A stretch of DNA of 64,000 nt from contig JBLNCE010000055.1 of the NCBI GenBank assembly GCA_050260415.1, forward strand, positions 29,621 through 93,620. Reading direction: 5' to 3'. Below, one piece after another: positions 2,852-20,020 of this stretch. Made by a program: the position numbers and the translations under genes. Numbering within the stretch: position 1 is the first letter of the stretch; every line of letters begins with the position of its first letter. The stretch is from Bacteroidota bacterium. Lineage in GTDB: Bacteria > Bacillota > UBA4882 > JAAYXC01. A model generated the notes under the pieces. It was not told where the DNA came from. It did no database searches and saw only the letters and a program-made list of their open reading frames with translations.

Positions 2852-2880
2852 CCTACATTAACAGCTTTGGAGGCGAGAGA

Positions 2881-4139: not shown

Positions 4140-4186
4140 TTGACGGAACCGTTTCGGTTGTGGAATAATTAATTAAATAAATTAAT
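4140..4186 (+). promoter_or_regulatory. Promoter and palindromic operator upstream of ROK regulator
   Basis: TTGACG-18-AATAAT with upstream TG; ATTAATT-N5-AATTAAT at 4168-4186. Confidence 0.7.
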
Positions 4187-4202
4187 CAAAAGGAGCCCAG
4201 CC

Positions 4203-5414
4203 ATGCGTCCTCTCAAGGGCAAGAACATGGCCGACTTGCGCAAGAGTAACCGGGCCAGGGTCCTTGAGGTCCTATTCAGACATGGGCCGATCTCCAGGGC
4301 GGAGATCAGCGAGATTACCGGTCTGACCCCGCCCGCGGTCACCGCGCTGGCCAACGAGTTGATCGGAGAAGGTCTCTTGGCGGAGGCGGGGGTTGAGGAC
4401 GGCAAGGCAACCGTGGGTAGAAAGCGCATAAAGTTGCAGCTCATTGCCGATTCGATGGTGGCCGTAGGCGTGGAGATTGGCATCAAGCATCTATCGCTTG
4501 GGCTTGTCGACCTCAACGGCCGGATCTTCAATACAACCACGCTGAACATTGAGGATAGCGACCCCGATGCCATTATTAAACTGGCGGCCAGCGGGATCGA
4601 ACGCATCGCGCGGGATTATGCCGCGCACCGGGTAATCGGCGTCGGCGTCGGCGCCACGGGTCTGGTGGACGGCGAGACCGGGATCGTGCGGTATTCGCCG
4701 AACATTGGCTGGCATGACGTTCCCTTGCGGCGTCTTTTGGAGGAACGGCTCAAGCTGTCCGTGGTCGTCGACAATAACGTACGCCTCATGGCGCTCGGCG
4801 AGAACATGTTCTTTCACAACCAGGGCGATGTCGCCAGGTTGGCCTTGATTCACGCCGATTACGGGATCGGCTGCGGGTTCACCGTCAACGGCGAGCTTTA
4901 TTACGGGCGGGGCTTTGCCGGGGGGGAACTTGGGCACACCATCATTCTACCAGAGGGTCCGCCGTGTATCTGCGGTAAAAAAGGCTGCCTGGAAACCGTC
5001 GCCTCGGGCAGGGCGATCACCACCCGCTATGCGGAGAAGACGAACCGCGGCAAGCTTAGTTACCGCGACGGGCTGCAGCAACTGCTCGCGGCGGGCGCCA
5101 AAAACGAGAAAGCGGCGGTGGAGATTCTCGCTGAGGCAGGCATGTATATGGGGATTGGTCTTACCAACCTCGCGACGGTGCTTGCGCCCGATCTGATCGT
5201 GCTGCACGGGCCCGTGTTCAAGTCGGATATCTACGCCCGGCACATGGCGGAGCAGATTGAGAGTCTCACCCGCGGCGAAGGCGAGGGTCTTTCCATTGTC
5301 AGCAGCCGCAAGCAGGGCGACCTGGTTATTCTGGGCGCGGGGGCGCTGACGATCCAGAAACTTTTGATCGACGACGCCTCACGCACGCGGCTGAGTAACG
5401 GCGGCGGCACTTGA
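4203..5414 (+). CDS. ROK-family transcriptional regulator (NagC/XylR-like)
   Basis: N-terminal HTH (ISRAEISEITGLTPPAVT), GRKR, VDNNV, GELGH, CICGKKGCLE. Confidence 0.92.
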   Translation: MRPLKGKNMADLRKSNRARVLEVLFRHGPISRAEISEITGLTPPAVTALANELIGEGLLAEAGVEDGKATVGRKRIKLQLIADSMVAVGVEIGIKHLSLGLVDLNGRIFNTTTLNIEDSDPDAIIKLAASGIERIARDYAAHRVIGVGVGATGLVDGETGIVRYSPNIGWHDVPLRRLLEERLKLSVVVDNNVRLMALGENMFFHNQGDVARLALIHADYGIGCGFTVNGELYYGRGFAGGELGHTIILPEGPPCICGKKGCLETVASGRAITTRYAEKTNRGKLSYRDGLQQLLAAGAKNEKAAVEILAEAGMYMGIGLTNLATVLAPDLIVLHGPVFKSDIYARHMAEQIESLTRGEGEGLSIVSSRKQGDLVILGAGALTIQKLLIDDASRTRLSNGGGT

Positions 5415-5448
5415 AACAAGCAAAAATGGAATCATGGAGGTGACTTGC

Positions 5449-6507
5449 GTGGGTAAGAAGCCGGGTGAATTTACTTACGCCGAGATCGTCGCCCAGCCGG
5501 ACGTACTGGGCGCCGTGGCCGCCAAGAAGGAGAGCTTGACGGCGACATGCAAAGCGGTCTTTGCCGTGGTCCAACCGGAAGAGGTCATCTTCACCGGTTG
5601 TGGCACCTCATACTATCTGGCCCAAACGATCTGCGCCGCGTTTTCGCGCTACAACCGCATTCCCGCCCGCGCTTTGGCCGCTTCGGAACTGCTGCTCTAC
5701 CCGGAGTTGTATCTCAAGGAACGGCGAACTTTGTTCGTGCCGATTACCCGCTCGGCGCAGACCACCGAGGTACGCAGGGTTCTGGCCGCGGTGCGCGGCC
5801 GCCCGGGCGTCGCGACGATGGCCGTTTCCTGCGATCCGGACAGCGCCGGGATAAACGACTATTGCCTCCTCACGCCGGTCACGGCGGAAAAAAGCGTGGT
5901 CATGACCAAATCGTTCTCCGCGCTGCTCATGGCGGGTCTCTTCATGGCCCTTGCCGCGGCGGGAGAGACCGATCTGAGCGAGGCCTTGGCGCGCCTGCCA
6001 AGCAGCGGCGCGGAGGCGGTGGCAAGGAGCGAAGCGATGGCGCGGAAGATCGTGGCGGAGAACGGGGACGCCAATCTCTTTGTCTTCCTGGGGCAGGGTC
6101 CGTGCTATGGTCTGGCCGGCGAAGCGATGATCAAGATGACGGAGATGTCCCTGGCGAACACCGCCGTCTTTCACAGCCTGGAATATCGGCATGGACCGCT
6201 CTCCCTGGTCGATAAGCGGACATTGGTCGTCCTTTTTGCCTCGCAGGCCGCCGTCGAGGTGGAGTTGCCGCTCCTCAAAGAACTCAAGGGTCTGGGCGCC
6301 CGGACGATGGCGATCGGCGGCGCGCTGCCGGAGGCGTTGACGTCCGTGGCGAACTACCACGTTGAACTGGCCCCCGGCCTTGGCGATTATCTTTGCGGCC
6401 CGTTGGCCATCGTACCGGCCCAGATGCTTGCCTATCATTATGCGCGCCGCCGGGGGCTCGATCTGGATACGCCGCGGCATCTATCCCATGCCGTGGTGCT
6501 GGCCTAA
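5449..6507 (+). CDS. SIS-domain sugar-phosphate deaminase/isomerase, paralog 2
   Basis: Collinear with 2881-3939; GTG 5449 follows GGAGGTG; TGCGTSY, EYRHGP. Confidence 0.85.
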   Translation: MGKKPGEFTYAEIVAQPDVLGAVAAKKESLTATCKAVFAVVQPEEVIFTGCGTSYYLAQTICAAFSRYNRIPARALAASELLLYPELYLKERRTLFVPITRSAQTTEVRRVLAAVRGRPGVATMAVSCDPDSAGINDYCLLTPVTAEKSVVMTKSFSALLMAGLFMALAAAGETDLSEALARLPSSGAEAVARSEAMARKIVAENGDANLFVFLGQGPCYGLAGEAMIKMTEMSLANTAVFHSLEYRHGPLSLVDKRTLVVLFASQAAVEVELPLLKELKGLGARTMAIGGALPEALTSVANYHVELAPGLGDYLCGPLAIVPAQMLAYHYARRRGLDLDTPRHLSHAVVLA

Positions 6508-6510
6508 GCC

Positions 6511-7749
6511 ATGGCAATCACCGCGCACGCCGACGTGGCGCTGAGGCCGCGCCCGGAGCCGTCGCCGGACGCGAAGCATGAGACGGAACTGATCGTTAAA
6601 AACGGCGAGGTCCTGACGGACCAAGGGCTGCTCCCGCTCGACGTGGCCGTTACCAGGGGCCGAATCGCCGCACTTGTCCAGCCCGCCATGGCGCGGTCCG
6701 CCGGTAAGACGATCGACGCGGCTGGATTCTATGTCCTGCCGGGGTTTATCGATCTGCATACGCATGGCGGTGCCGGCATCGATCTCATGCACGCCACGGA
6801 GGACGAGATCGCCCGGTTGACCGAGTTTTACGCCGCCCAAGGCACGACCGGTTTCTTGGCCACCACGCTTACGGCCGCCAAGGAAGAGACGCTCAGCGCC
6901 CTGGTAAGAATGAAAAAAGTGAGCGAGCGCGGGACATGCGGCGCGCGGATGCTGGGCATTCATCTCGAAGGGCCTTATATTACCAGGGATTTTGCCGGTG
7001 CGCAGCCGACCGCGCACATCGTTCCACCTACGCCCCAGGATTTTGCGGCTTACGACGCGGCGGCGGGCGGCCTTATCAGATTGGTCACCTTGGCGCCGGA
7101 AGTGGATGGCGCCTTGGAATTAATTTCATATTTACGCCAGCGTGGCGTTGCCGTATCGTTAGGCCACTCCGGGGCGACATACAAGTGCGCCTTGGCCGCC
7201 ATCGCCGCCGGGGCCTGCAGTTGCACCCACATTTTCAACGGCATGAAGGGATTGCACCACCACGAGCCGGGTATTCTCGGCGCCTGCCTCGAAAGTGAGA
7301 TCTACAGCGAATTAATCTGCGACGGCCGGCATCTCGCGCCGGGGACCGTGCGTCTGCTCTGGAAGACAAAGGGGATCGACCGCTTGCTTGCCGTCACGGA
7401 CAGCATGGTGGCGGCGGGATTGCCCGACGGGACCTATTGGCAGGGATCCCTTGAGCTGACGGTACGCGAAGGCGACGTCCGCTTGCGGGACGGCTCGCGC
7501 GCCGGCAGCTCCTTGACGATGATTGGGGCGCTCAGGAACCTGATCAAGTTTACCGGCCGCGGTCTCGCCGAGTGTGTGCGGCCGTTGACGTGCAATCCGG
7601 CGGCGCTCCTGGGGATACAGGGCGCCAAGGGCGGCATCCGTCAGGGCATGGATGCGGATCTGGTCCTGATCGACCGGGATTATCGAGTCCGCGGCACCAT
7701 TGTGGACGGTAGGGTGGTTTATGCCGCCGGGCTTGAGGGGGTGGGATGA
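6511..7749 (+). CDS. nagA: N-acetylhexosamine(-6-phosphate) deacetylase, NagA/AgaA family
   Basis: PGFIDLHTHG, HLEGPY, TLAPE, GHSGA, THIFNGM, ICDGRH, VTDSM, AGSSLTM, NPA. Confidence 0.88.
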   Translation: MAITAHADVALRPRPEPSPDAKHETELIVKNGEVLTDQGLLPLDVAVTRGRIAALVQPAMARSAGKTIDAAGFYVLPGFIDLHTHGGAGIDLMHATEDEIARLTEFYAAQGTTGFLATTLTAAKEETLSALVRMKKVSERGTCGARMLGIHLEGPYITRDFAGAQPTAHIVPPTPQDFAAYDAAAGGLIRLVTLAPEVDGALELISYLRQRGVAVSLGHSGATYKCALAAIAAGACSCTHIFNGMKGLHHHEPGILGACLESEIYSELICDGRHLAPGTVRLLWKTKGIDRLLAVTDSMVAAGLPDGTYWQGSLELTVREGDVRLRDGSRAGSSLTMIGALRNLIKFTGRGLAECVRPLTCNPAALLGIQGAKGGIRQGMDADLVLIDRDYRVRGTIVDGRVVYAAGLEGVG

Positions 7750-7837
7750 GACGCGGTGGGGCATCGCGTTTTCAACGGTCCGGATATGAAGTTGTTTATT
7801 TTTGACAGCCAAAAACAGCTAAAGGGAGGTTGTATGA

Positions 7838-9106
7838 ATGCGTAGGTTTTCCCTGATAAAGATTGCCGTGACCGTCGCTTTAGCCCTGGTCATCGTGGCC
7901 GTCGCTTGCTCCGCCGCGAGTGTGGTCACGGTGCGGTTCGCCACTTACGGACTCTTGGAGAAAGCGACCGCCGACCTGTTCAAAAAGATGGCGGTGGATT
8001 TCGAGGCGGCCAACAAGGGCGTAAAGATCGAGTTCGTCAACTTTCCCTACGGCGATCTGAAGCAGCAGGTCCTGGTCATGGCCTCCGCCGGTGACTATGT
8101 GGACGTTGTGCACGGCGAGCGCCCCTGGCTAAGCACGTTTGTGGCCTCGGGGTACTTCGCGGAGTTGGACCGGTTCATGAGCCGGAGCTATCTCAAGGAT
8201 TTCTACCCCAATATCCTCGACGACATGCGCAGCAACGGCAAGCTCTACGCCATCCCCTGGATCGTCACCCCGTACGTGCTTTACTACAACAAGGACCTCT
8301 TCACCAAGGCCGGACTGGATCCGAACGCGCCGCCCAAGACCTACGACCAGGCAGTCGCCTACGCAGCCAAGATCGCCGCCTTGAAGGACAAGGACGGCAA
8401 TCAGGTCTACGGCCTCGGCGAGACCACCGCTTCCGTGCCCGTGAGCGGCTCCTCCATCCTCCGCGTCCTGTACAGCTTTGGCGGCGGGATCTGGGACAAG
8501 AAGGGCAACGTCAGTGTGAATACGCCGGGCAACGTGGAGGCATTCAAGTACTTAAAGACGTTGTACGAGAACAAATATAACGCGGAGGTCGCCAAGCTGA
8601 AGGATCTCCGTAACCTCTTCGCCATCGGGCGGCTGGGAATGTACTTTGACCAGCTCTGGGGCATCAGCGGCGCCATCGCCATCAATCCCGAGATCCAAGG
8701 GAAGCTCGGCCTGGCGCCGCCGCCGGCGACCGCCGCGACCAAGGGGTTGAGCACCCTCGAAGCACACATGCTCTTGATCATGAAAGACTCCAAGCACAAG
8801 AGCGAAGCGGCGCGGTTCGTCGAGTACATCACCTCCAAGGACGTCATGGTCAACTACTATACCAATTACAGCAGGTTCATCGCCCCGCGCGCCTCGATCG
8901 ACAAGCTGCCGGAGATGAACGATGCCTTTATCAAGCCGGCCAAGACAAGCATCAGTCAGTGCAAAGCCATGGCCAAACAACACCCCAACATGGAAAGCGC
9001 GTTCCTGGAACTCTGCGCGGCCGCGCAAAAGGTCACGGTCGGCAAGAGCAGTCCCGAGACCGTCGTCAAGGAACTGGACGCCAAGCTGAAGGAGATCCTG
9101 AAGTAG
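7838..9106 (+). CDS. Carbohydrate ABC transporter solute-binding protein
   Basis: Signal peptide; GKLYAIPW, LYYNKDLF..AGLD; GGGAGG RBS. Confidence 0.92.
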   Translation: MRRFSLIKIAVTVALALVIVAVACSAASVVTVRFATYGLLEKATADLFKKMAVDFEAANKGVKIEFVNFPYGDLKQQVLVMASAGDYVDVVHGERPWLSTFVASGYFAELDRFMSRSYLKDFYPNILDDMRSNGKLYAIPWIVTPYVLYYNKDLFTKAGLDPNAPPKTYDQAVAYAAKIAALKDKDGNQVYGLGETTASVPVSGSSILRVLYSFGGGIWDKKGNVSVNTPGNVEAFKYLKTLYENKYNAEVAKLKDLRNLFAIGRLGMYFDQLWGISGAIAINPEIQGKLGLAPPPATAATKGLSTLEAHMLLIMKDSKHKSEAARFVEYITSKDVMVNYYTNYSRFIAPRASIDKLPEMNDAFIKPAKTSISQCKAMAKQHPNMESAFLELCAAAQKVTVGKSSPETVVKELDAKLKEILK

Positions 9107-9109
9107 TTC

Positions 9110-9240
9110 AGGGCACGCGTCCGGGGCGATGTTTTTAGACCCTCACCCCTTTCCCCTCTCCCGCGATCGCGGGAGAGGGAAACGAAGGGGAGAGGGTACA
9201 GCATCGAACCGCGAAAAGCGTGTTTGTACAACGCTTTCAC
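9110..9240 (-). repeat. Family-A palindromic miniature element
   Basis: Reverse complement AAAGCGTTGTACAAAC...ACCCTCTCCCCTTCGTTTCCCTCTCCCGCGATCGCGGGAGAGGGGAAAGGGG matches ~35905-35975 and ~25540. Confidence 0.8.
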
Positions 9241-9292
9241 TGTTAACGCGGTTATGGTTATCACATCGCGCGAACCCGATCGAGGTGATCTT

Positions 9293-10210
9293 ATGAAGCG
9301 ACCGATCGCCGGACGCAGCAGCTTCCGTCATAAACATCGCGTGGACGCGGCGTTCGCGGTGCTGACGATTGCGCCCACGGTGCTGCTCGTCTTTATATGC
9401 AGTTTTCTGCCCGTGGCCAAGTCCATCTACCTCAGTTTTCTCGATTTCAAGCTTTCCCGGGCCTATCAAAGCTTGTGGAACAACTTCCAGAACTACAAGG
9501 AGATCCTAGCCCAGGGAGACCTGGTTGCCGCCGTCAAGGTCACCTTGGTCTTTGTCGCGGTGGTCGTTTTCCTGCAGTTGTGCCTCGGCTTGTTGCTGGC
9601 TCTGATCCTAAACAGCCGGATCCATGGCCGGCGGCTCGCGCGGAGCCTGGTGCTCCTGCCCTGGGTCATACCCACGGTGATTACGGCGCTGCTCTGGAAC
9701 TGGCTGTATCAACCCCAGTACGGTCTGATCAACTATGTCCTGCTGAAGACGGGCCTGATCGCCAGCCCCGCGTCCTGGCTTGCGGATGTGAAACTGGCCT
9801 TGCCGAGCGTGATGGTAACGGCGCTTTGGAAGCAGTTGCCGTTGATGGCCTTGATGCTCTTGGCCGGCCTGCAGTCAATCCCGGTCGAGATGTATGAGGC
9901 GGCGCGGATGGACGGCGCTGGCGCGCTGCAGTCCCTGCGGTTTATCACCCTGCCCTTCCTGCGAAGCGTCATCCGGACCACGGTTATGATCTCGATTATC
10001 CTTAACTTTAAACAGTTCCCCTTGTTCTGGATCATGACCGGCGGCGGTCCGATCGACGCCACGACCACCCTGGCGATTTACAGCTACAAGAGCGCTTTCG
10101 TCAACCTGGATTTCGGTAAGGGCGCGGCGATTGCCACGCTCTGGCTGGTGCTGTTGGTGGCCGTGTATCTGGGTTTCAACCGGCTTTTCAAGATAAACGA
10201 GGTCGAATAA
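9293..10210 (+). CDS. Carbohydrate ABC transporter permease (MalF/UgpA-like)
   Basis: EAA motif LQSIPVEMYEAARMDGA, TGGGP; GAGGTG RBS. Confidence 0.92.
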   Translation: MKRPIAGRSSFRHKHRVDAAFAVLTIAPTVLLVFICSFLPVAKSIYLSFLDFKLSRAYQSLWNNFQNYKEILAQGDLVAAVKVTLVFVAVVVFLQLCLGLLLALILNSRIHGRRLARSLVLLPWVIPTVITALLWNWLYQPQYGLINYVLLKTGLIASPASWLADVKLALPSVMVTALWKQLPLMALMLLAGLQSIPVEMYEAARMDGAGALQSLRFITLPFLRSVIRTTVMISIILNFKQFPLFWIMTGGGPIDATTTLAIYSYKSAFVNLDFGKGAAIATLWLVLLVAVYLGFNRLFKINEVE

Positions 10211-10309
10211 TCCAGCACGACTCGCCATGCGGCTTTGTTCTCCCAAAGGGAGATCGCGACACGGAGTTATTGCAAACCGTCCGAATCACGCGACAAGGTG
10301 GGACCGACC

Positions 10310-11137
10310 GTGAAGGACAAAAGCAGGCTGATCACCTATCCGGCGCTCTGCGTCTTCCTGGTTTTTTTGCTCTTCCCGCTTTATTGGATGCTCTGCACAT
10401 CGTTCAAGACGAACCTCGTGATCTATAAGGTACCACCGGAATGGTACCCGCATCTTCCCACGCTCGCCAATTACGCGCGCCTTTTTCGGGAAGGGGCGTT
10501 CATCGGCTATTATCTCAACAACTTCATCGCTTCCTTCCTCGCCACGGCTTTGACCGTCATCCTTGCCGTCTTGTCCGGGTACTCACTGTCGCGGTTTAAG
10601 TTTCGGGGCAGCAATCTGCTCATGCTCCTGCTGCTCTCGACGCAGATGTTCCCCCTGATTGGAATCGTGATCGCCCTGTATACCGTCTTCCGGTCCATGA
10701 GCCTGCTCAATACGATGACCGGTTTGGTCCTGGCTCTATCCGCCGCGGCCCTGCCGTTCTGTGTCTGGCTGATCAAGGGGTTCTTCGACAGCGTGCCCAT
10801 ATCATTGGAGGAAGCAGCCGCCATCGACGGCTGCGGCCGGCTCGGCACACTGGCGCGGGTCGTTCTGCCGCTTTCCAAACCCGGCCTCCTGGCGATCGGT
10901 ACCTACGCCTTCCTGCTGTCCTGGGATGACTTCCTCTACTGCCTGACGCTCATCACCAAAGACAACCTGCGCACGCTCTCGGTGGGGATTGCCCTGCGGT
11001 ACCTGGGCGAACTCTCTTACGATTGGGCCACGGTCATGACAATCTCGGTCATCGGTACGCTGCCCATGCTGTTGCTCTTCGTGTTCTTCCAGGGTTACAT
11101 GGTTCAAGGATTGACCGGGGGGAGCATCAAGGGGTAG
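10310..11137 (+). CDS. Carbohydrate ABC transporter permease (MalG/UgpE-like)
   Basis: FFDSVPISLEEAAAIDG, VLPLSKPGL, GLTGGSIKG. Confidence 0.92.
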   Translation: MKDKSRLITYPALCVFLVFLLFPLYWMLCTSFKTNLVIYKVPPEWYPHLPTLANYARLFREGAFIGYYLNNFIASFLATALTVILAVLSGYSLSRFKFRGSNLLMLLLLSTQMFPLIGIVIALYTVFRSMSLLNTMTGLVLALSAAALPFCVWLIKGFFDSVPISLEEAAAIDGCGRLGTLARVVLPLSKPGLLAIGTYAFLLSWDDFLYCLTLITKDNLRTLSVGIALRYLGELSYDWATVMTISVIGTLPMLLLFVFFQGYMVQGLTGGSIKG

Positions 11138-11190
11138 CTGCCCCTAGCAATGATCTACGCCACTAGCCATCCTACAAGGAGGGAAATGTC

Positions 11191-12369
11191 ATGACCGGCA
11201 ATCTATTGGTCGCGCACGGCGGCGGGCCGACCGCTGTCATCAACGCGTCGCTGTTTGGGGTGGTGTCGGAAGCGAAAAAGCACAAGGAGATCAACGGCAT
11301 ATTCGGCGCGCGTTTCGGGATCGACGGCGTCTTGAACGAGAGCTTCATCGACCTCGGCCGGGAACCGGAGTCCAAGATCGATAGGCTTCCCTACACTCCA
11401 TCCTCGGCGCTTGGTTCCACCCGACGCAAACTGACGGAGGATGATTACCCCCGCATCATCGAGATCTTCAAGCGCTACAACATCCGCTATTTCCTCTACA
11501 ACGGCGGGAACGACTCCATGGACACCTGCCTGAAGGTGGCGGAAGCCGCGGGGAATTACGAGATCCAGGTCATCGGCGTACCCAAGACCATTGATAACGA
11601 TCTGGCGGAGACGGATCATTGTCCGGGTTTCGGCAGTGCCGCGCGTTATACGGCAGTCAGCGCCATGGAACTGTTCAAGGAGGTGGCGGGGCTCCCGATC
11701 CATGTCATCGTCATGGAGACCATGGGCAGGAACGCCGGCTGGCTTACCGCCGCCGCGGCCCTTGGCCGGAAGAGCGAGACCGACGGTCCCCATCTGGTCT
11801 ACCTGCCGGAACGGGTTTTCCGCGAAGAGCAGTTCGTCGAGGATGTAAGGCGCTGGAACTCCCGGGTCAAGGGTGTATTGGTGGTGGCCAGCGAGGGGCT
11901 GGTGGACGAGAAGGGGGAGTCCATTGCCAACACCGGCATCCTGGATGGTTTCGGGCATAAGATCCCTGGGGGCGTCGGCCAGGCCTTATCCAATATACTC
12001 ATCAAGCACGGCCTTAAATCACGCAGCGAAAAACCCGGGCTCCTCGGGCGCAACTCCATCGCCCTGCAATCGTCCGTCGACCGCGACGAAGCCATCCGGG
12101 TCGGGGTGCATGCGGTCCAGTGCCTCATGGAGGGAAAGACGGGGTACATGGTGGCGATCAGGCGCGTAACCAACACGCCCTACCAATCCACGCTGGAACT
12201 CGTGCCGTTGGCGAAGGTCGCCAATGTGGAGCGCAAGATGCCCGACAAATTCATCAACAAAGAAGGCAACGGCATCGAGCCGTCCTTTGCCGACTACTGC
12301 CTGCCGCTCCTCGGCGAACCCTTGCCGGACTATGTCGCGCTGGACGGGGTTTCCGTGGCCAAGGCGTGA
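11191..12369 (+). CDS. pfp: Phosphofructokinase, PPi-dependent type signature
   Basis: GGGPTAVIN, GGNDS (Asp at the position diagnostic for PPi use), PKTIDND, METMGRNAGW. Confidence 0.85.
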   Translation: MTGNLLVAHGGGPTAVINASLFGVVSEAKKHKEINGIFGARFGIDGVLNESFIDLGREPESKIDRLPYTPSSALGSTRRKLTEDDYPRIIEIFKRYNIRYFLYNGGNDSMDTCLKVAEAAGNYEIQVIGVPKTIDNDLAETDHCPGFGSAARYTAVSAMELFKEVAGLPIHVIVMETMGRNAGWLTAAAALGRKSETDGPHLVYLPERVFREEQFVEDVRRWNSRVKGVLVVASEGLVDEKGESIANTGILDGFGHKIPGGVGQALSNILIKHGLKSRSEKPGLLGRNSIALQSSVDRDEAIRVGVHAVQCLMEGKTGYMVAIRRVTNTPYQSTLELVPLAKVANVERKMPDKFINKEGNGIEPSFADYCLPLLGEPLPDYVALDGVSVAKA

Positions 12370-12387
12370 GGTAATCGCCCGGGATAA

Positions 12388-12545
12388 AGTAACGATTACG
12401 ATTGCGGAGTACGAGTACGTGTACGAGTACGATTATGATTGCGAGTGCATGTACATACAGGTACGGGTACGACAGAAAACATGGCGAAGATTATTCTCTG
12501 GCTCCCCTCACAGGCGTTTTGCCGGGACAACAAGGGATGAAAATC
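12388..12545. repeat. Hexamer (GAGTAC/GATTAC) tandem repeats plus GGGACAAC...GATGAAAA motif (family B)
   Basis: Related arrays and the same motif occur at 47985-48105 and 52545-52700. Confidence 0.7.
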
Positions 12546-12614
12546 GGGTTGACGTCCCCGAGCGACGAGCGACCAGCGACGAGCTGCGTTTTTCAAAATA
12601 AGGAGTGAATATCG

Positions 12615-13469
12615 ATGCTTGTTACCAGCAAGGAGATCGTTCTGAAGGCGTACAAAGAGGGGTATGCGGTGCCGGCCATCAATACCCAGGGCGGCAACTA
12701 CGACATTATCCGCTCGATCTGCCTCGCGGCCGAGGAGATGAAGTCGCCGGTGATCCTGGCGCACTATATCGCCACCGGCGCGTATTCGGGCAACGAATGG
12801 TTCGCCGAGGTGGCGAAATACTGGGCAAAGAAGGTCGCCGTGCCCGTGGCGGTTCACCTGGATCACGGCGACACCTTCAAGACCTGCGTTGAAGCGCTCC
12901 AGATGGGCTTTACCTCCATCATGCTGGATTGCTCCACCGAATCGATCGAGGATAATATCCTGCACACCAATAAAGTGATCGAGGTCTGCCACGCCGTCAA
13001 CATCCCGGTCGAGGCGGAGGTGGGCGAGCTTGTCCGGCTGGACGCCACCGGCGCGGTCATGGAGAACAAGAACATTGCCAACGTGGATGACGTGAAGCGA
13101 TTCCTGGCTGGCTGCCAACCCGACATGCTGGCAATCGGCATCGGCAACGCGCATGGGTTCTACAAGGGCAGACCGGACATCCGCCTGGATATCCTGAGAC
13201 AGGTGCGGGAAATAACCTCTTTGCCGTTGGTGTTGCACGGTTGCACCGGTATGCCCGACGAGATCGTCAAGGAAGCCATCGGCCTCGGCATGGCCAAGAT
13301 CAACTTCGGCACCCTGGTCCGCCATAAGTATCTCGACTACTACAAGGAAGGCATTGAGACCCTGGAACACAACGGCCACTCCTGGAAAGTCTCACAGTTC
13401 GCCGAGCTGAAATTGAGGGAGATCATCAAGGACATTATCAAGCTGTCCGGTTCGGAAAATAAGTACTAG
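12615..13469 (+). CDS. Class II ketose-bisphosphate aldolase (fructose/tagatose type)
   Basis: YAVPAIN, HLDHG, EAEVG, GNAHG, VLHG, KINFGT. Confidence 0.9.
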   Translation: MLVTSKEIVLKAYKEGYAVPAINTQGGNYDIIRSICLAAEEMKSPVILAHYIATGAYSGNEWFAEVAKYWAKKVAVPVAVHLDHGDTFKTCVEALQMGFTSIMLDCSTESIEDNILHTNKVIEVCHAVNIPVEAEVGELVRLDATGAVMENKNIANVDDVKRFLAGCQPDMLAIGIGNAHGFYKGRPDIRLDILRQVREITSLPLVLHGCTGMPDEIVKEAIGLGMAKINFGTLVRHKYLDYYKEGIETLEHNGHSWKVSQFAELKLREIIKDIIKLSGSENKY

Positions 13470-13591
13470 CGAAGGGCGCGGCTGATCTTGCATCATTCCT
13501 TCACTCCCAGGTCCTCCCCTGTGATCGCGTGGGCGGGATGGAGAGAGGGCAAATCATCGGCAAAGCATATTTCGCAAGGTGGAGAAGCATC

Positions 13592-14938
13592 GTGGACCAG
13601 AAACAACTTAATCTCGGCTTTGTCACCACGCTTTCCGGGCGCTGGCCCCGGGAACTGCCGGCGCGGCGCGATGAAGAATACGCGTCCTGGCTGGCCGCGG
13701 CCTTTCCCGGCGTTAATCTCGTGCGCGCCCGCGAAATCGCCGTGGACAACGAGAGCGTGGCGCGGATCGCGGCTGGTTTCAAGGCCTGTGCCGTGGATCT
13801 GATTGTCGTCCTGATCGGCGCCTTTACCGGCGATTTCGCCGCGGTCGCCTTGGGCGAGGAACTCAAGGTCCCCATCATCCTCTGGGCGCCGCGTGAACCG
13901 CCGTTCGACGGGGGGCGTCTCATGGCGAACAGCCTGGTGGCGGCCACCATGAACGCGGCGGCCCTGAACAGGATGGATCTAAAATACCACTTCGTATATG
14001 GCGATCGCGACGAGGAAAGAGTCGGCGGGGAGGTCGCCCGTTACATCCGCGTGTACGGCGCCCTCAAGAGATTGAGGCATACATACCTTGGTTTGCTGGG
14101 CTACCGGCCGACCGCGTTCTACAGTTCGACTTTTGACGAGACCCTGATCCGCAAGCGGTTCGGCCTCAAAATGGAAGAATTCGACCTGAAGATGGTCTTC
14201 GACCTGGCGGAGAAGGTCGAGCCAGACAAGCTGGCGGCGGAGATAAGGGAATTCGAGAAGACCGTCAGGCTCGTCAACCTGCCCGAGGGTCATCTGGAGA
14301 ACCATTGCCGGCTATACCTTGCGCTGGAGAGATTCTTCGCGGAGCAGGGGTTTGATGCCGTCTCCCTCAAGTGCTGGCCGGAGATGGGTTTCCTAAAGTA
14401 TACGCCCTGCGCGGTGTTGTCCCGGTTCGCCGAGAAAGGCTTCGTCATCGGGTGCGAAAGTGACGTGGACGCCACGATTACGATGCTGATCCAGACGTAC
14501 CTGACGGGTCAGGCTGTTTTCATGGGCGATCTAGTTACCATCGACGAGCGCGAGAACACGGCCCTGTTCTGGCATTGCGGCCAGGCCGCCGGGAGCCTCA
14601 AGGACCCGGAGCGCGAGTCGTTTGCCAGCAATCATCCCTTGGCCGGCCAGGGTGTGGTCTTCGAAACGACGCTCAAACCGGGCAGGGTCACGATTGCCCG
14701 CATGTCCAAGATCGGCGGCGGGTACAAGCTCTTCCTGACCGCCGGACAAGCCGTGCCGACCGAAAAAGTTGTCAAAGGCGTGATGGTGAACGTGGTCCTG
14801 GACGATCCGGTCCTGAGGACCGTCTACCGGATCGCGGCGGAAGGCGTGCCGCATCATTATGGCATCGTCTGGGCCGATGTACGTGAAGACCTGAGGGTTC
14901 TCTGCGCGGCCCTGGGGATCGAAGTCTTGCAGGTATAG
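13592..14938 (+). CDS. L-fucose/L-arabinose isomerase-like protein
   Basis: PIILWA.REP, KCWPE, GCESDVD, WHCG, LKPGRVTIAR, GVPHHY; GTG start inferred from RBS. Confidence 0.8.
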   Translation: MDQKQLNLGFVTTLSGRWPRELPARRDEEYASWLAAAFPGVNLVRAREIAVDNESVARIAAGFKACAVDLIVVLIGAFTGDFAAVALGEELKVPIILWAPREPPFDGGRLMANSLVAATMNAAALNRMDLKYHFVYGDRDEERVGGEVARYIRVYGALKRLRHTYLGLLGYRPTAFYSSTFDETLIRKRFGLKMEEFDLKMVFDLAEKVEPDKLAAEIREFEKTVRLVNLPEGHLENHCRLYLALERFFAEQGFDAVSLKCWPEMGFLKYTPCAVLSRFAEKGFVIGCESDVDATITMLIQTYLTGQAVFMGDLVTIDERENTALFWHCGQAAGSLKDPERESFASNHPLAGQGVVFETTLKPGRVTIARMSKIGGGYKLFLTAGQAVPTEKVVKGVMVNVVLDDPVLRTVYRIAAEGVPHHYGIVWADVREDLRVLCAALGIEVLQV

Positions 14939-14998
14939 GTAGAGAAACGAAGCTTTGCCATGGATGCGGTAGCCGCGACCGGAGAGGAGGAGGTTTTC

Positions 14999-15934
14999 TT
15001 GCGGGAAATCTTCGTCAATCTTAAACGTTTCGACGTGCCCAGGCGGCTCGGCGGGATCTGTCAATCGGAGGACCCGCGTGCCTGGGTGGAGTGGATAATC
15101 TCGGAAAGCGTCCGCGGGGGCTTGGGCAGGCTGTCGGGGATGGAACTAACCTTTCTCTTGCCGGAAGGACTGATCCTCGAGGCCGCGGGAAGGCTGGCGT
15201 CTTTTCCGGCGCAGGAGACGCGGTCCATCAACCTCGGCTGCCAGGGGGTCTTTCGTGAGGACGTCGCGCCGGGGGGGAATTTTGGCGCTTTCACCACGAA
15301 CCGTCCCGCCGCCGCCGCCAAGAATCTTGGTTGTACCTGGACGATCGTCGGCCATTCCGAAGAACGCCGGGATAAGCTGGGCGTCATCGCAAAGTACGAT
15401 CCGGACGTGCTCCAGAATATGGCTCAACAGCGAAAAGCCAAGTCGGCGGTGGATGCGCTCATCAACGAGGAGATTCTCCGCGCCCTGGATGCCGGGCTGA
15501 ATGTGCTGGTTTGCGTGGGTGAGACCGCGGAGGAAAAGGGGGAAGGAGATTTCCCGGCCCAGAAGCCTCGCATCGAGGAGGTGCTCCGCGCCCAACTGGC
15601 GACGGGCCTGAAGGAGGTCGCGGGCAAGTTGGACGGGCGGAAGATCGTCCTCGGTTACGAGCCGATCTGGGCGATCGGCCCCGGCAGGACGCCTCCGGGG
15701 GAGGATTATATTGGCTTCGTCTCCGCTTTCATCAAGCAGACCGTCAAGGAGATCCACGGCTTCGATCCGACCGTGGTCTATGGCGGCGGGTTGAAGGAAG
15801 AGAATGCCGGCATGATCGCCCGCATCCCGGCGATCGGCGGCGGACTGGTGGCACTGACCCGGTTCACCGGCGAGATCGCCTTTGAGCCGGAGGGGTTGAT
15901 CAGGATCGTCGGGAAGTACCTTGAGGCGGGCTGA
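14999..15934 (+). CDS. Divergent triosephosphate isomerase family protein
   Basis: NLKR, GAFT, GHSEERR, VCVGET, YEPIWAIG, YGGG; TTG start after GGAGG. Confidence 0.82.
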   Translation: MREIFVNLKRFDVPRRLGGICQSEDPRAWVEWIISESVRGGLGRLSGMELTFLLPEGLILEAAGRLASFPAQETRSINLGCQGVFREDVAPGGNFGAFTTNRPAAAAKNLGCTWTIVGHSEERRDKLGVIAKYDPDVLQNMAQQRKAKSAVDALINEEILRALDAGLNVLVCVGETAEEKGEGDFPAQKPRIEEVLRAQLATGLKEVAGKLDGRKIVLGYEPIWAIGPGRTPPGEDYIGFVSAFIKQTVKEIHGFDPTVVYGGGLKEENAGMIARIPAIGGGLVALTRFTGEIAFEPEGLIRIVGKYLEAG

Positions 15935-16065
15935 ATCCAGAGGGCCCATCCCGGGGTGAGGGTTGAAGATTCATGAGGTTAGCGGTGGGCGTCTTTGTGC
16001 GTAGAACGACGCCACGACGAGAAGCGCAGCCCATCAACCAACCTTTTCAGAAAGGATAATAACGC

Positions 16066-17490
16066 ATGAAATCCGTAAACATCGAATACGGCGACGGATT
16101 GCTGCCGATCGAGGTCCCCGAGACGGCTGTGGTGCCGCGCTACAAAGAGACTTATTTTGACCCGCCCGCGGCGGCCGACCCGGCGGCCGCAATCAGGAAG
16201 GCCTTGGCCAACCCGCTGGGCATGGACCCCTTGGGAAAGTTGGCGAAAAACGGCAGCAAGGTCGTGATCGCCTTTCCCGACCGGGTCAAGGGCGGATCGC
16301 ACGCGCAGGCGCACCGGCGGTTGGCGATTCCCATAATCGTCGAGGAACTCAAACGCGCCGGGGTACGCGACCGGGATATCCTGCTGCTCTGCGCGATCGG
16401 ATTGCACAAAAAGAATACGAAGGAAGAGTTCGACCAGTATCTCGGCCGGGAGATCGTGGACGTTTTCTGGCCGGACCGGATTAAGAACCACGACGCGGAG
16501 GACCCGGAAGGCATCGTGCAACTTGGCCGGGATGAGATGGGGAACCCCGTCTGCGTGAACAAAGACATTTATGAGGCGGATCTGGCGGTCATGATCGGCC
16601 ATACGCAGGGCAACCCTTACGGCGGTTATAGCGGCGGCTATAAGATGTGCGTCACCGGCGTGACCGACTGGCGCTCGATCGGCAGCCACCATTGTCCGGC
16701 GACCATGCATCGCGAGGACTTCGTGCCGGTAAATACGGAGCGGAGCCACATGCGCAGGCAGTTTGATTCCATCGGCCGGGCGATGGAAAAAGGCATGGGT
16801 AAGAAGTTCTTCCTCGTCGATGCCGTGCTGGGCGCCGAATCGCAAATCCTGGCCGTCTACGCGGGCGCGGCGGCGGAGGTTCAGAAGGCGAGCTGGCCCC
16901 TGGCGCGGCAACGCACGGAAGTAGTCTTGGACATCAAAGAGAAGTTCGACGTCATGGTTTTTGGCCTGCCCAGGACCTTTCATTACGGTCCGGGCATGGG
17001 CACCAACCCGATCCTCATGCTCCAGGCGTGCGGAAGCCAGGTGGCGCGGAATCTCTCGGTCTTGAGGGAAGGCGGCGTCGTCATCGCCGCGTCCGTCTGC
17101 GATGGCTGGTTCAATGACGAATGGTTTCCCTCCTACCGCGAGGTCTATACAAGGCTGCAAGGCGTCGATGATCTGGCCCAGGCGGTCGCCTGGGCGGAGG
17201 AGATCGCCACCCGGCCCGAATATATCCGCAAATACCGGCACGAATTCGCCTACCATCCCTTCCACGCCCTATCCATGGTCGCCATGGGCGGCGTGGCCCT
17301 GAGGCATACCAGCGCGATCTATGTGGTGGGGGCCAAGGAACCGCAATGCGCACGGGGTATGAGAATGAGGCCGGTCGATACCTTTGCCGAGGCGCTCGGG
17401 GAAGCGGCGAAGATCGTCGGCAGGGACCCGAGGATGCTCGTGATACCGGAGGCGTTTACGAGAACGGCTGTACATTTCAAGATGCCGTAA
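16066..17490 (+). CDS. Lactate racemase (LarA) homolog, nickel-pincer family
   Basis: I.YG start, ALANPLG, IGLH, NHD, GGYSGGYK, GGVVI. Confidence 0.8.
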   Translation: MKSVNIEYGDGLLPIEVPETAVVPRYKETYFDPPAAADPAAAIRKALANPLGMDPLGKLAKNGSKVVIAFPDRVKGGSHAQAHRRLAIPIIVEELKRAGVRDRDILLLCAIGLHKKNTKEEFDQYLGREIVDVFWPDRIKNHDAEDPEGIVQLGRDEMGNPVCVNKDIYEADLAVMIGHTQGNPYGGYSGGYKMCVTGVTDWRSIGSHHCPATMHREDFVPVNTERSHMRRQFDSIGRAMEKGMGKKFFLVDAVLGAESQILAVYAGAAAEVQKASWPLARQRTEVVLDIKEKFDVMVFGLPRTFHYGPGMGTNPILMLQACGSQVARNLSVLREGGVVIAASVCDGWFNDEWFPSYREVYTRLQGVDDLAQAVAWAEEIATRPEYIRKYRHEFAYHPFHALSMVAMGGVALRHTSAIYVVGAKEPQCARGMRMRPVDTFAEALGEAAKIVGRDPRMLVIPEAFTRTAVHFKMP

Positions 17491-17502
17491 TGGAGGGACG
17501 TC

Positions 17503-17664
17503 ATGTTCGCTCAGATCGATGATGCGCTCAAAGAGATCTTTACTCTGCACCGGACGCTCTACGGACTCATTACGCTCGGCACCATGGTCGCGATCGGCGT
17601 TACGGTGGGCGCAATTACGGAACTGATCGTGCGCGTGGCTGGTCTCAGAGTGGACAAGCGTTGA
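17503..17664 (+). CDS. Small membrane protein, 53 aa (absent from ORF track)
   Basis: GGAGG RBS; MFAQIDDALKEIFTLHRTLYGLITLGTMVAIGVTVGAITELIVRVAGLRVDKR; one TM helix; sits in operon before TauE. Confidence 0.7.
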   Translation: MFAQIDDALKEIFTLHRTLYGLITLGTMVAIGVTVGAITELIVRVAGLRVDKR

Positions 17665-17782
17665 TCGCGATCCCGGAAATCCAGGACATGCATGTAACTT
17701 GCCGCGGTATTACCGCCTTGGCGTATTAGCGCCGATACCGCAGATTCTCAAGGTACTTCCAAGAGCATCGGGAGGATTGAGT

Positions 17783-18811
17783 ATGTATTTACCTATCGCG
17801 GATGCGGTCGTAAATCCGATCGCCCTGGTCGTCATCGGTTTCTGCGTGGGTATCCTGGGTGGTTTCTTCGGCGTCGGCGGCGCCTTCATGGTTACACCCG
17901 CCCTGAACATCTTCGGCTTTCCCATGGCCTATGCCATCGGAACCGATGTCGCCCACATCTTCGGCAAGTCTATCGTCTCAACATACAAGCACGCCCTATT
18001 GAAACATGTCGACTGGAAGCTGGGCGCCGTCGTCGGTTTGCTGGGCATGTTCGGGGTCAATCTCGGTAAGGACATGGTGCTCTACCTGGAAAAGGTGAAT
18101 CTGGTCGGACCCATCGTCAGGATCGTTTATATGCTCCTGCTCTTTACGATCGGCGGTCTCATGCTCATGGAGTGCCTCAGCAAAAAAGCCGCTAGCTCGG
18201 ACAGGGATGAGGCCGGCATAAGCAGGGTCGCCCGGAGAATTCGCGGCTTGAAGATCCCACCCGTGCTATCGTTTCCCCAATCCGGCATCGAGTCCGTCTC
18301 CATCTGGGCAGTGGTCTTGCTTGGCGTCTTTACCGGCTTCGTCTCGGGTTTCCTCGGGGTGGGTGGAGGTTTCGTGCGTGTACCGATGTTTATCTATCTA
18401 TTGGGGTTACCGACGGTGATCGCGGTCGGGACGGACCTGTTGGCCATCTTGATCTCCAACGCTTGGGGTGCATACATATACGCCACGGCGGGTAAGGTGG
18501 AGCTGGTGGGAGCGGCGGTCATGCTTCTTGGCGCCGGGGTCGGCGCGCAGTTGGGGTCGCTTGCGACCGCTTTCATCAAAGGGATGCAAATCAGGCTGTA
18601 TTTTGCCATCACTGTGCTGCTCGCCGGGGCATCGGTGGTCCTGAAACAGTTCGGGCTCGACCGGGTGGCCGGGTATCTTATGTTGGGGTCGGCTCTGGCG
18701 CTCAGCGCGTGGATCCTGATCTTGCTCGTGAGAGAGGTCGCCGCGGGCAAAAGGAGGATCGAGGCGTCGGCGTTCGGAGAGGCGGCGGCGGGAAAAGATA
18801 GTGTTGAGTGA
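17783..18811 (+). CDS. TauE/SafE (TSUP) family exporter
   Basis: Two repeats [13 protein letters not shown]...AIGTD and [13 protein letters not shown]...AVGTD; multiple TM helices. Confidence 0.9.
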
Positions 18812-18821
18812 GGATGACTCC

Positions 18822-19928: not shown

Positions 19929-20020
19929 GTCGTGTTCCGTCCTCCCTAGGTGACGCTCGCGCCGGTTTTGCAGGTGGGTGCTGAACAGGAGGCCTCCCTG
20001 CCGCCTACACGGATGTGTTC

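Follow-up and report, generated by a model that had tools for sequence, protein, structure and literature searches.

A conserved bacterial locus of divergent amino-sugar and glycolytic paralogs with a possible role in the use of sugars modified by sulfur groups at C6

In the sulfo-Embden-Meyerhof-Parnas-2 (sulfo-EMP2) pathway of Gram-positive bacteria, an isomerase (SqvD), a phosphofructokinase (PFK)-family kinase (SqiK) and a class II aldolase (SqiA) act on a sugar with an anionic group at C6, which is phosphorylated at C1 without any C6 kinase and cleaved to dihydroxyacetone phosphate (DHAP) and a C3 sulfo-aldehyde (PMC9594981, PMC10665668). The catabolism of N-acetylglucosamine (GlcNAc) and N-acetylgalactosamine (GalNAc) employs NagC, NagA and NagB or GlmD in one version and AgaA, AgaS, PfkA or LacC, and KbaY in another. 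Finally, a subfamily of LarA proteins represented by LarASp and LarABw (PDB 9Q2U, 9Q3K and 9Q3J) carries asparagine in place of the second catalytic histidine and holds an unidentified ligand of ~316 Da; from its gene neighbors, annotated as phosphoglucose isomerase (PGI), pyrophosphate (PPi)-dependent PFK, triose-phosphate isomerase (TPI), fructose-bisphosphate (FBP) aldolase, glucosamine-6-phosphate (GlcN6P) isomerase and aldose epimerase, its authors suspected a role in carbohydrate metabolism (Gatreddi et al. 2025, PMC12611868). Here, we analyze a 64,000-nucleotide stretch (the window) of contig JBLNCE010000055.1, in which relatives of all three systems come together in one gene unit. We refer to the versions of NagA, SIS, PFK, class II aldolase (Ald), TPI and LarA encoded in this unit as the cluster versions of these families.

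Annotation of the window genes by open reading frame (ORF) listing, Pfam and NCBIfam found every gene that a preliminary description of this DNA had listed, in the order given and all on the forward strand (Table 1). Its unit was incomplete only in starting at the ROK gene, since a second double-SIS gene upstream belongs to the locus; the unit ends at a hairpin and a convergent sigma-70 gene. Among the unit genes, Pfam and NCBIfam identified no sugar kinase or phosphotransferase system (PTS) gene, as had been stated, and no ATP-binding cassette (ABC) ATPase gene either. Since many further genomes share this gene set, the arrangement is more than accidental, and the stretch from ~2.9 to 18.8 kb is most likely one repressor-controlled catabolic locus of specialized amino-sugar and upper-glycolysis paralogs.

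The gene content, the conservation and the residue changes of the locus are established; from them we infer what its substrate is, which reactions occur and in which direction transport runs. We propose, with about an even chance of being right, that the locus processes hexoses and N-acetylhexosamines whose C6 bears an anionic sulfur group instead of phosphate, in a sulfo-EMP2-like manner, 6-O-sulfate being the favored group. The favored candidate substrates would be GlcNAc-6-sulfate or glucose- or galactose-6-sulfate from sulfated glycans, and a C6-sulfonate is possible. In this scenario, the ABC system would import the sugar, after which cluster NagA would deacetylate it and cluster SIS would deaminate and isomerize it to a 6-sulfo-ketohexose; in an alternative branch, the SqvD-like isomerase would convert a neutral 6-sulfo aldose into the 6-sulfo-ketohexose. 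Cluster PFK would then phosphorylate C1, probably from PPi, and cluster Ald would split the resulting 1-phosphate into DHAP and a C3 sulfo-aldehyde. Cluster TPI and then cluster LarA, nearly always adjacent, would convert this aldehyde further by way of an enediol and a hydride shuttle, and the TauE-family transporter would move a sulfur-containing anion across the membrane. The preliminary description had sketched a related route; its conserved unit, sulfo-EMP2 make-up, changed phosphate contacts and co-conservation of larA and tauE all stand, while its sulfonate example, its 6-deoxy option and the ortholog-level clustering that it proposed to look for do not.

The unit recurs widely. Of 8000 scored candidates, 448 are homologs of the isomerase, the best of them, itself excluded, at 68% identity, and a 15-homolog alignment led to 171 confirmed places in species-representative genomes. 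Eighty loci were kept, mostly labeled Bacillota, Lachnospiraceae, Hungatella, Ruminiclostridium and Desulfosporosinus, and were annotated by tblastn with the window proteins, by Pfam and NCBIfam for unmatched neighbors and by phmmer with hidden Markov model (HMM) propagation; because each locus stops ±10 kb from its anchor or where the contig ends, all counts are minimum values, and related genomes cannot be treated as independent of one another. Ald and the isomerase, nearly always adjacent, are the core of the 80 loci, and PFK, TPI and LarA form a travelling block, with LarA found in 20/20 PFK loci and in 22 of the 23 TPI loci. SIS accompanies NagA in 23 of 25 loci and Ald accompanies SIS in 43 of 44, and the complete set of ten enzyme and transport genes was found in 5 loci. 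The gene set is thus modular, comprising an Ald-isomerase core, a PFK-TPI-LarA block, and SIS and NagA as add-ons. This recurrence bears out the earlier proposal of a conserved, uncharacterized sugar-catabolic unit; the amino-sugar substrate proposed with it fares less evenly, as the branch exists but is merely accessory, SIS being present in 44 and NagA in 25 of the 80 loci compared with a universal Ald and isomerase.

A second set was anchored on LarA. Five of 40 relatives and six of 400 genomes sampled across the phylum have the window LarA, giving 11 loci, and it was absent from both same-family genomes searched (n = 2). Cluster TPI adjoins LarA in nine of these loci, and in eight a TauE-family gene lies at most two genes away (Pfam-confirmed for three, E values of 1e-40 to 1e-45). 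Across the 80 and the 11 loci, larA and TauE-family genes are therefore co-conserved with the sugar genes, the opposite of what the preliminary description had named as grounds for giving up its proposal, and on this account they belong to the system.

Outside the unit, the same genome holds three more LarA-family genes, further PFK, class II aldolase and NagA-like genes, many ROK genes and two canonical TPIs with near-equal scores (C7:21477-22211 and C88:14426-15160), so that the unit enzymes are extra, divergent paralogs. That the locus is merely two or more unrelated operons, one nag and one glycolytic, lying side by side is scarcely credible. The gaps of 245 bp between PFK and Ald and of 131 bp between TPI and LarA could house internal promoters, and no RNA run is among the listed holders of the stretch, but modules of both halves are interleaved elsewhere (in Lachnospiraceae loci, permease 2, Ald and SIS are contiguous and LarA adjoins NagA), and each of the enzymes has a housekeeping counterpart elsewhere in the genome, from which it has diverged as a paralog.

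The residue changes start with the deacetylase. Cluster NagA has readable HxH, E, H, H and D metal and catalytic motifs in alignments to known structures and reads HHHEPG, with histidine for arginine, where the enzymes of B. subtilis, T. maritima and M. smegmatis (2VHL, 1O12 and 6FV3) have (H/R)-R-E-P-G. This arginine is reported to be invariant and to pincer the 6-phosphate together with its neighbor, and its mutation led to loss of activity in a mycobacterial NagA; the two mycobacterial enzymes studied require an anion at C6, and GlcNAc-6-sulfate is among their substrates, with the Km raised 7-fold (PMC6016474). Histidine occupies the column in 24 of 25 cluster-linked orthologs. In all five genomes with a full or near-full cluster, a second NagA above the TIGR00221 cut-off keeps HHRKPG, and the cluster copies read HQH[FY]PA. 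The switch from arginine to histidine appears to be specific to the cluster NagA paralog, and the changed 6-phosphate contact noted in the preliminary description is upheld by the alignments, the orthologs and the arginine of the housekeeping copies.

Cluster SIS represents a distinct subfamily that misses the equivalog models GlmD (149 bits against 580) and AgaS (95.9 against 529). The motifs CGTS, K..E and RHGP, whose meanings we assume from GlmS, are kept in 46/46 family members, and the C-terminal lysine position is occupied by Q or H. The two SIS proteins of the window share 70.6% identity over 350 aa; related loci usually hold one SIS gene only. Compared with GlcNAc and GalNAc catabolism, the locus shares ROK, NagA, double-SIS, PFK and class II aldolase genes but differs in a NagA without the phosphate-binding arginine, in SIS and aldolase proteins that miss their equivalogs, in having no kinase or PTS in the window unit and in its added isomerase, TPI, LarA and TauE genes.

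With respect to the kinase, the PDB match is 3HNO (3.5e-82). The histidine of the family-conserved PIHV motif aligns with an arginine in the other PFK of the genome (contig C150), at a position that we take to be Arg162 of E. coli PfkA, a 6-phosphate contact. The motif K-x-R-x-E-K-P-G-x-x-G-R is at least 90% conserved, and lysines and arginines cluster around the sugar-phosphate site. The phosphoryl donor is probably PPi, as suggested by GGNDS and PKT motifs, which we regard as signs of PPi use.

Cluster Ald keeps the metal histidines and has the family motifs LAHY..TG and GHSW[KM]. It scores similarly on GatY/tagatose-bisphosphate and FBP aldolase (FBA) models and misses the cut-offs of all FBA, GatY and KbaY equivalogs (KbaY, 144 against 542; GatY subfamily, 223.6 against 383); the membership in AgaS and KbaY/GatY raised in the preliminary description is thus not found for either cluster SIS or cluster Ald. 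The loop of cluster Ald reads Y-I-A (Tyr51), compared with S-E-G (Ser49) in H. pylori FBA and G-Q-K in SqiA, in which the backbone amides of Gln51 and Lys52 hold the sulfonate and alanine replaces an inter-subunit arginine (PMC10665668). The residues aligned to the 6-phosphate contacts of class II FBP aldolase therefore differ, as had been claimed, and the protein is equidistant from SqiA (8Q58, 1e-46) and FBP aldolases (4.7e-49). For the isomerase, no PDB sequence match was found, and its closest and sole named relative is the sulfoquinovose isomerase SftI/SqvD, matched below the NCBIfam cut-off.

Isomerase, PFK-family kinase and class II aldolase together give the Pfam make-up of sulfo-EMP2 that the preliminary description had pointed out (PMC9594981, PMC10665668): PF02952, PF00365 and PF01116 share one cluster in both, a likeness at the family level only, and some loci related to the window also have a mutarotase. 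The clustering with SqvD/SftI or SqiA that the description proposed to examine is not seen at the ortholog level, the isomerase scoring 271 against 700 on SftI and the aldolase being no closer to SqiA. Further differences lie in the other loop residues of the aldolase, the lack of any sulfoquinovosidase found or of a sulfolactaldehyde (SLA) dehydrogenase or reductase in the unit, a kinase of the PPi-PFK subfamily, the added cluster NagA, SIS, TPI, LarA and TauE, and neighboring sulfatases that point to esters. The locus is not a strict member of sulfo-EMP2 and, judged by its proteins, resembles sulfo-EMP2 joined to an amino-sugar branch.

The same enzymes bear on a possible 6-deoxy route, in which sugars of the fucose, rhamnose or quinovose type, or N-acetylamino forms of these, would after desulfation be isomerized, phosphorylated at C1 and cleaved to DHAP and lactaldehyde, which cluster TPI and LarA would then handle. 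An isomerase of the FucI superfamily, the tyrosine, tryptophan and Ala-Leu-Phe residues that replace polar phosphate contacts in cluster Ald and TPI, a lactaldehyde dehydrogenase-like gene near the block in one related locus (L095), and sulfatases that could free such sugars from fucoidan- or ulvan-like glycans would fit. However, known 6-deoxy sugar routes use a different aldolase fold, and the conserved Lys/Arg cluster at the sugar-phosphate site of the kinase, the conserved Arg/Lys/Gln in the rebuilt loop of cluster TPI and the recurring TauE and NitT/TauT anion transporters speak against it. Given also that the mycobacterial NagA enzymes tested depend on an anion at C6 (PMC6016474), we regard a 6-deoxy sugar, the second option of the preliminary description, as a poor fit and very unlikely.

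The C6-anionic sulfur sugar that we favor would yield a C3 product for cluster TPI and LarA. Cluster TPI shares with triose-phosphate isomerases (PF00121) the asparagine, lysine, histidine and glutamate, presumably catalytic, of the motifs N-x-K (NLK), GH[SC]E and YEP, kept in 28/28 members. In contrast, loops 6 to 8 are changed, and the protein is nearly always paired with cluster LarA. Loop 6 reads AIGPGKTPPG, insertions of ~20 aa follow Lys12 and His95, and in 28/28 members YGGS of loop 7 has become YGGG and VGGAS of loop 8 has become ALT[RKQ]F; loop 8 also has a 6-residue insertion. We take the loop 7 serine and the loop 8 Gly-Gly to be the phosphodianion gripper, which would thus be rebuilt throughout, in line with the changed TPI contacts of the preliminary description. 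The protein scores 70.6 bits on TIGR00419 (cut-off, 130.6), and its family comprises 64 cluster representatives at an E value of ≤1e-30 among 1.84 billion proteins, with ordinary TPIs appearing from ~1e-19.

Cluster LarA matches 9Q2U/9Q3K (E value, 1e-148) and 9Q3J (3.4e-134) over its full length. The alignment shows the motifs GLHKK, QGNPYGG..GGYK, FHYG and HPFH, asparagine for the second catalytic histidine, the lysine that binds the cofactor, nickel-pincer nucleotide (NPN), and the His/Tyr pocket, and the score on the lactate racemase model NF033504 (146.9 against 460) does not reach LarA proper. By length and residues it is a member of the published single-histidine orphan subfamily (LarASp/LarABw). 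LarC, which is needed for the cofactor, is encoded in the genome, hence NPN synthesis is available. In the published assay of LarASp, which has one catalytic histidine, lactate racemase activity was not detected (PMC12611868), which excludes lactate racemization by cluster LarA. The racemization of a C3 acid by cluster LarA is unsupported, and the handling of the C3 acid by LarA that the preliminary description had assumed is therefore guesswork. The neighbors of these proteins were treated as glycolytic enzymes in that report (PMC12611868), whereas those found here are divergent paralogs with altered 6-anion sites and links to sulfatases and TauE.

Possible roles for cluster TPI and LarA include sulfolactate or 2,3-dihydroxypropane-1-sulfonate racemization, hexose-stage epimerization, and elimination followed by a hydride shuttle. 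Loop-impaired TPI leaks methylglyoxal. This, together with the near-invariable TPI-LarA pairing (9/11 and 22/23 loci) and the published single-histidine architecture, opens the way for one further hypothesis, which we consider a long shot. Here, cluster TPI would act as a beta-eliminase and not as an isomerase, forming the enediolate of the C3 sulfo-aldehyde (glyceraldehyde-3-sulfate or sulfolactaldehyde) and, by virtue of its rebuilt gripper, expelling sulfate or sulfite to give methylglyoxal; cluster LarA would convert methylglyoxal hydrate to D-lactate by a hydride shuttle, a single stereospecific reduction for which one catalytic histidine would suffice; and TauE would export the inorganic sulfur oxyanion. 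If true, this would, in combination with cluster NagA, SIS, PFK and Ald, be a complete, redox-neutral and sulfatase-independent glycolysis of sulfated sugars and a first function for the orphan LarA subfamily. Among the papers listed by a literature search, none linked sulfoquinovose to LarA by title or abstract, and one review was found for sulfolactaldehyde, methylglyoxal and sulfite together.

Some loci surround these two genes differently. The closest LarA relatives (67 to 70% identity), in L095 (genome G401) and L096 (G377), lie in a locus of another build, with distant isomerase, PFK and Ald homologs (32 to 36% identity), three GntR regulators, an ABC system that has an ATPase of its own, and the order Ald-TPI-LarA-GntR-TauE. 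Pfam and NCBIfam annotation of L095 identified genes for an aldehyde dehydrogenase and an aldehyde:ferredoxin oxidoreductase just past this block, and ORFs of similar size stand at the two matching positions in L096. In L097 (G255), which lacks cluster TPI, a gene with a beta-hydroxyacid dehydrogenase fold (NAD_binding_2 and NAD_binding_11; 4388-5524) stands directly upstream of LarA; we take this to be the fold of tartronate-semialdehyde and SLA reductases, including YihU. An alternative front end of PGI-like, phosphomannose isomerase (PMI)-like and 396-aa class II aldolase genes accompanies PFK-TPI-LarA in L092 to L094, L091, L001, L003 and L038, replacing the Ald-isomerase pair in some loci and supplementing it in others.

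On the nature of the C6 group, the sulfatases give evidence by association; they were found in 43 of the 80 loci, usually inside the ABC operon. The C-x-[PA]-x-R motif is present in 46 of 47 locus sulfatase ORFs, most of which, on visual reading of their N termini, run straight into the domain with no obvious signal peptide. For the one locus sulfatase compared, the nearest structures are those of a GlcNAc-6-sulfatase (5G2V, 1.1e-60) and of a mucin-desulfating sulfatase (7P24). Six loci also encode a radical-SAM/SPASM protein, likely a sulfatase maturase, and four an NMT1-type binding protein. The genome has 13 sulfatase matches, and downstream of the unit the window holds a sulfated-glycan utilization region (27521-56851), which, in addition to four sulfatases, includes two BNR/Sortilin-type, two CBM96, GH57-like, GH4, enolase-superfamily and amidohydrolase genes, together with an AraC regulator and another ABC system.

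Sulfatases act on esters, not on C-S bonds. Together with the sulfatases, the maturase and the missing glycoside hydrolase family 31 (GH31) gene, this is why we place 6-O-sulfate before sulfonate. A search of the genome, which is 94.9% complete, for sulfoquinovosidase (YihQ, PF01055) had no match, the control matching in 6 of 14 genomes; SqvB (DUF4867) also gave 0 matches, but its control was silent in all 14 genomes. The C6-sulfonate of the preliminary description, N-acetyl-sulfoquinovosamine, is not borne out: the sulfatases and maturase of the related loci and the window point to sulfate esters. A route in which a C6-sulfonated amino sugar or sulfoquinovose is cleaved to DHAP and sulfolactaldehyde, the latter becoming sulfolactate that LarA racemizes and TauE exports, would account for the sulfo-EMP2 Pfam make-up, for SftI as the isomerase's only named relative and for the recurrence of TauE and NitT/TauT-type transporters. 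The L095 aldehyde dehydrogenase beside TPI-LarA-TauE, whose second-best match is the sulfoacetaldehyde dehydrogenase SafD, and the L097 dehydrogenase upstream of LarA, with a fold that we take to be that of YihU, would suit it as well. Nevertheless, we consider it improbable, given the SftI score, the missing GH31, an aldolase no nearer to SqiA than to FBA and without the SqiA loop residues, and the ester chemistry of the sulfatases. By Pfam, no SLA dehydrogenase or reductase domain occurs among the unit genes, in agreement with the preliminary description, which found the aldehyde dehydrogenase required by its route to be missing; an aldehyde dehydrogenase and a beta-hydroxyacid dehydrogenase are present in L095 and L097, respectively. 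LarASp, moreover, has one catalytic histidine and showed no lactate racemase activity (PMC12611868). The literature searched made no mention of sulfoquinovosamine and gave no result for hexose or triose 6- or 3-sulfate terms, and nothing relevant for GlcNAc-6-sulfate with Lachnospiraceae or Hungatella was among the results listed.

For the TauE-family transporters, PF01925 was confirmed in L001, L007, L029, L077, L090, L091 and L092, and a TauE HMM matched 20 loci of the isomerase-anchored set of 80 plus five of the six loci L089 to L094 (25/86); in L095, L096 and L099, TauE was found by HMM alone. The window TauE and that of L092, directly downstream of LarA, share 36.6% identity over 290 aa (E value, 7e-55), and the tblastn search with the window TauE, which found nothing in the 80 loci, was a sensitivity failure, as Pfam and the HMM later found TauE-family genes. 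In Lachnospiraceae, the slot between NagA and the isomerase holds either one or two TauE genes or a fused mannose-family PTS IIC-IID gene. The two never occur together (0/20 TauE loci and 0/15 PTS loci have both), and one or the other is present in 19 of 27 LarA loci. Their shared slot and mutual exclusion suggest that they do the same job; no EIIA or EIIB gene lies beside the fusion in L019, the sole locus inspected. The TauE substrate would be a sulfur-containing anion. NitT/TauT-type ABC parts (an NMT1/THI5-like binding protein, permease and ATPase) occur in or next to the cluster in L042, L058, L033, L063 and L091, in the last directly after LarA-TauE (11728-13344). The window binding protein matches the sulfoquinovosyl-glycerol binder SmoF weakly (4.3e-13).

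A number of observations weigh against our proposal, in addition to the limits on the locus counts given above. PTS systems normally deliver 6-phosphates, and PTS IIC-IID fusions stand in for TauE in 15 loci. The substrate of the window binding protein is not indicated, its PDB matches being generic CUT1 binders (best, 5CI5 at 7.5e-28). The unit itself has no sulfatase, the nearest being ~10 kb away, sulfatase and pathway genes occur together in 8 of 27 LarA loci, and the locus sulfatases could simply remove sulfate, with the product, a neutral sugar, going to a kinase whose gene lies elsewhere. PGI-like and PMI-like genes accompany PFK-TPI-LarA in some loci, one PGI-like protein scoring 481.6 bits against a glucose-6-phosphate isomerase cut-off of 443, which fits plain phospho-sugars. 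Cluster SIS keeps its phosphate-loop serine and threonine residues, GHSW[KM] of cluster Ald lies near the H. pylori inter-subunit Arg280 in a weak C-terminal alignment of low confidence, and the histidine-for-arginine changes are also compatible with other anions or with regulation.

Much of this would be expected of an ordinary phospho-sugar route, in which imported sulfated amino sugars or oligosaccharides are desulfated in the cytoplasm, 6-phosphorylated by a kinase or PTS encoded elsewhere and taken through a GalNAc/tagatose-type path of NagA, SIS, PFK and a KbaY-like aldolase, with cluster TPI and LarA as accessories. The passing of TIGR00221 by NagA and of PRK14072 by PFK, the similar aldolase scores on GatY/tagatose-bisphosphate and FBA models, the AgaW/AgaE-like fusions, the frequent sulfatases, the PGI-like neighbor and the many ROK genes of the genome agree with it. 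We still hold it to be unlikely, because the phosphate-binding arginine is lost in the cluster NagA alone while the housekeeping copies keep it in 5/5 genomes, the TPI gripper is rebuilt in 28/28 members despite canonical TPIs in the genome, and the AgaS and KbaY cut-offs are widely missed. The window unit has no kinase, EIIA or EIIB gene, and this route would give the free-aldose isomerase, the most conserved member, no role and would leave the recurrence of TauE unexplained.

Already in print are the LarA subfamily and its "glycolytic" neighborhood (PMC12611868). Our literature searches did not find the sulfatase/TauE link, the paralog-specific loss of phosphate contacts or the modular architecture, although the supplementary context figure of PMC12611868 may list some of the neighbors. 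A structurally solved but functionless nickel-pincer subfamily would gain a testable substrate hypothesis along with partner enzymes. If sugars are indeed metabolized with a 6-O-sulfate standing in for phosphate, soil bacteria and gut Lachnospiraceae would have a new means of feeding on sulfated glycans, such as mucin and keratan-like, algal or microbial polymers, beside or in place of the Bacteroides sulfatase route, and the sulfoglycolysis family would gain a further branch. The arginine-to-histidine change of the NagA paralog offers a simple annotation marker for genes now named nagA, pfk, fba and tpiA.

Table 1. Features of the locus, its surroundings and related loci, with lower-bound occurrence among the 80 isomerase-anchored loci
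Feature	Position	Strand	Basis or remarks	Loci (of 80)
Second double-SIS gene (GlmD/AgaS/GlmS-C-like)	2737-3939, likely start ~2881	+	Pfam SIS; NCBIfam GlmS/GlmD/AgaS all below cut-off	
Promoter-like site TTGACG-18 nt-AATAAT with TG, overlapping a 28-nt A+T-only palindromic stretch	4140-4195	+	Promoter scan, direct reading	
ROK-family regulator (NagC/Mlc type)	4203-5414	+	PF00480; MarR_2/HTH_24 at residues 17-66	9
Double-SIS sugar deaminase/isomerase (cluster SIS), distinct subfamily	5434-6507	+	PF01380	44
NagA-family deacetylase variant (cluster NagA)	6511-7749	+	TIGR00221 309.7 bits, cut-off 225.65	25
CUT1-type sugar ABC substrate-binding protein	7838-9106	+	SBP_bac_1, SBP_bac_8; orthologs 34-59% identity	60
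ABC permease 1	9224-10210	+	BPD_transp_1	61
ABC permease 2	10235-11137	+	BPD_transp_1	61
PPi-type PFK-family kinase (cluster PFK)	11191-12369	+	PF00365 169 bits; PRK14072 470.7 bits, cut-off 273	20
Class II ketose-1-phosphate aldolase (cluster Ald)	12615-13469	+	PF01116 249.7 bits	75
FucI-superfamily aldose-ketose isomerase	13529-14938	+	PF02952 28.4 bits vs 29.3; NF048012 SftI 271 vs 700	
TPI-like protein (cluster TPI)	14960-15934	+	PF00121 103 bits, profile positions 54-229 only	23
LarA homolog, single-histidine NPN subfamily (cluster LarA)	16066-17490	+	PF09861; PDB 9Q2U, 9Q3J	27
53-aa hydrophobic ORF, reality uncertain	17503-17664	+	Frame read from sequence	
TauE/SafE (TSUP) family membrane transporter	17783-18811	+	PF01925 148.5 bits vs 32.6	20
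Hairpin, 11-bp stem, between convergent TauE and sigma-70 genes	18804-18829	listed on -	Terminator scan; likely two-way terminator	
Convergent sigma-70 gene	18822-20036	-	Pfam	
URO-D-like gene, past the sigma factor	20287-21624	-	Not an ortholog of those in related loci	
URO-D/MtaA-like genes, related loci	L095 2571-3713; L096, L028, L041, L014			
Window sulfatase	28930-30384		Domain begins within ~20 residues of N terminus	
Window sulfatase	48116-49603		Domain begins within ~20 residues of N terminus	
Window sulfatase	49647-51275		As above; 70% identical to the next	
Window sulfatase	55220-56851		As above	
Sulfatase, related loci				43
LacI regulator, related loci				56
Fused PTS mannose-family IIC-IID, related loci	L016 8170-9873; L019 8317-9918		Best matches AgaW and AgaE	15

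With respect to regulation, the ROK protein is a NagC/Mlc-type regulator and not a kinase, because it has helix-turn-helix domains and its best NCBIfam match is NagC (182 bits, below the cut-off of 650); in our own reading of the sequence, its first glycine-rich kinase motif looks degenerate. The site at 4140-4169 is the best promoter match of the scanned region (10 of 12 positions), and a further promoter-like site precedes the upstream SIS gene (2515-2543). Overall, the promoter scan was not significant, with 7 sites against 5.1 expected, and the terminator scan likewise did not rise above shuffles. A palindrome (4166-4179) and the 28-nt A+T-only stretch (4160-4190) overlap the -10 region before the ROK gene; this stretch is a candidate operator of the ROK repressor. 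No Rfam RNA family was found in window positions 1 to 24000.

The source assembly comprises 207 contigs and 3.7 Mb at ~60% G+C, with a completeness of 94.9% and a contamination of 5.3%, and the sequencing runs listed as holding the window are four DNA runs, none of RNA, from a single soil-metagenome study. In view of this contamination estimate, the two canonical TPI genes may represent a duplicate or a contaminant contig.

A few neighboring genes were set aside. The 53-aa ORF between LarA and TauE has no Pfam match, and neither tblastn nor phmmer found a relative of it in the 80 loci. A URO-D-like gene was considered as a pathway member, since it recurs in five related loci, and was rejected because the window copy is not an ortholog (24% identity over 172 aa). 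In L019, two small ORFs lie between NagA and the PTS fusion (7395-8157, reverse strand), one with an HTH-like C terminus, and this pair looks like an inserted toxin-antitoxin or regulator pair.

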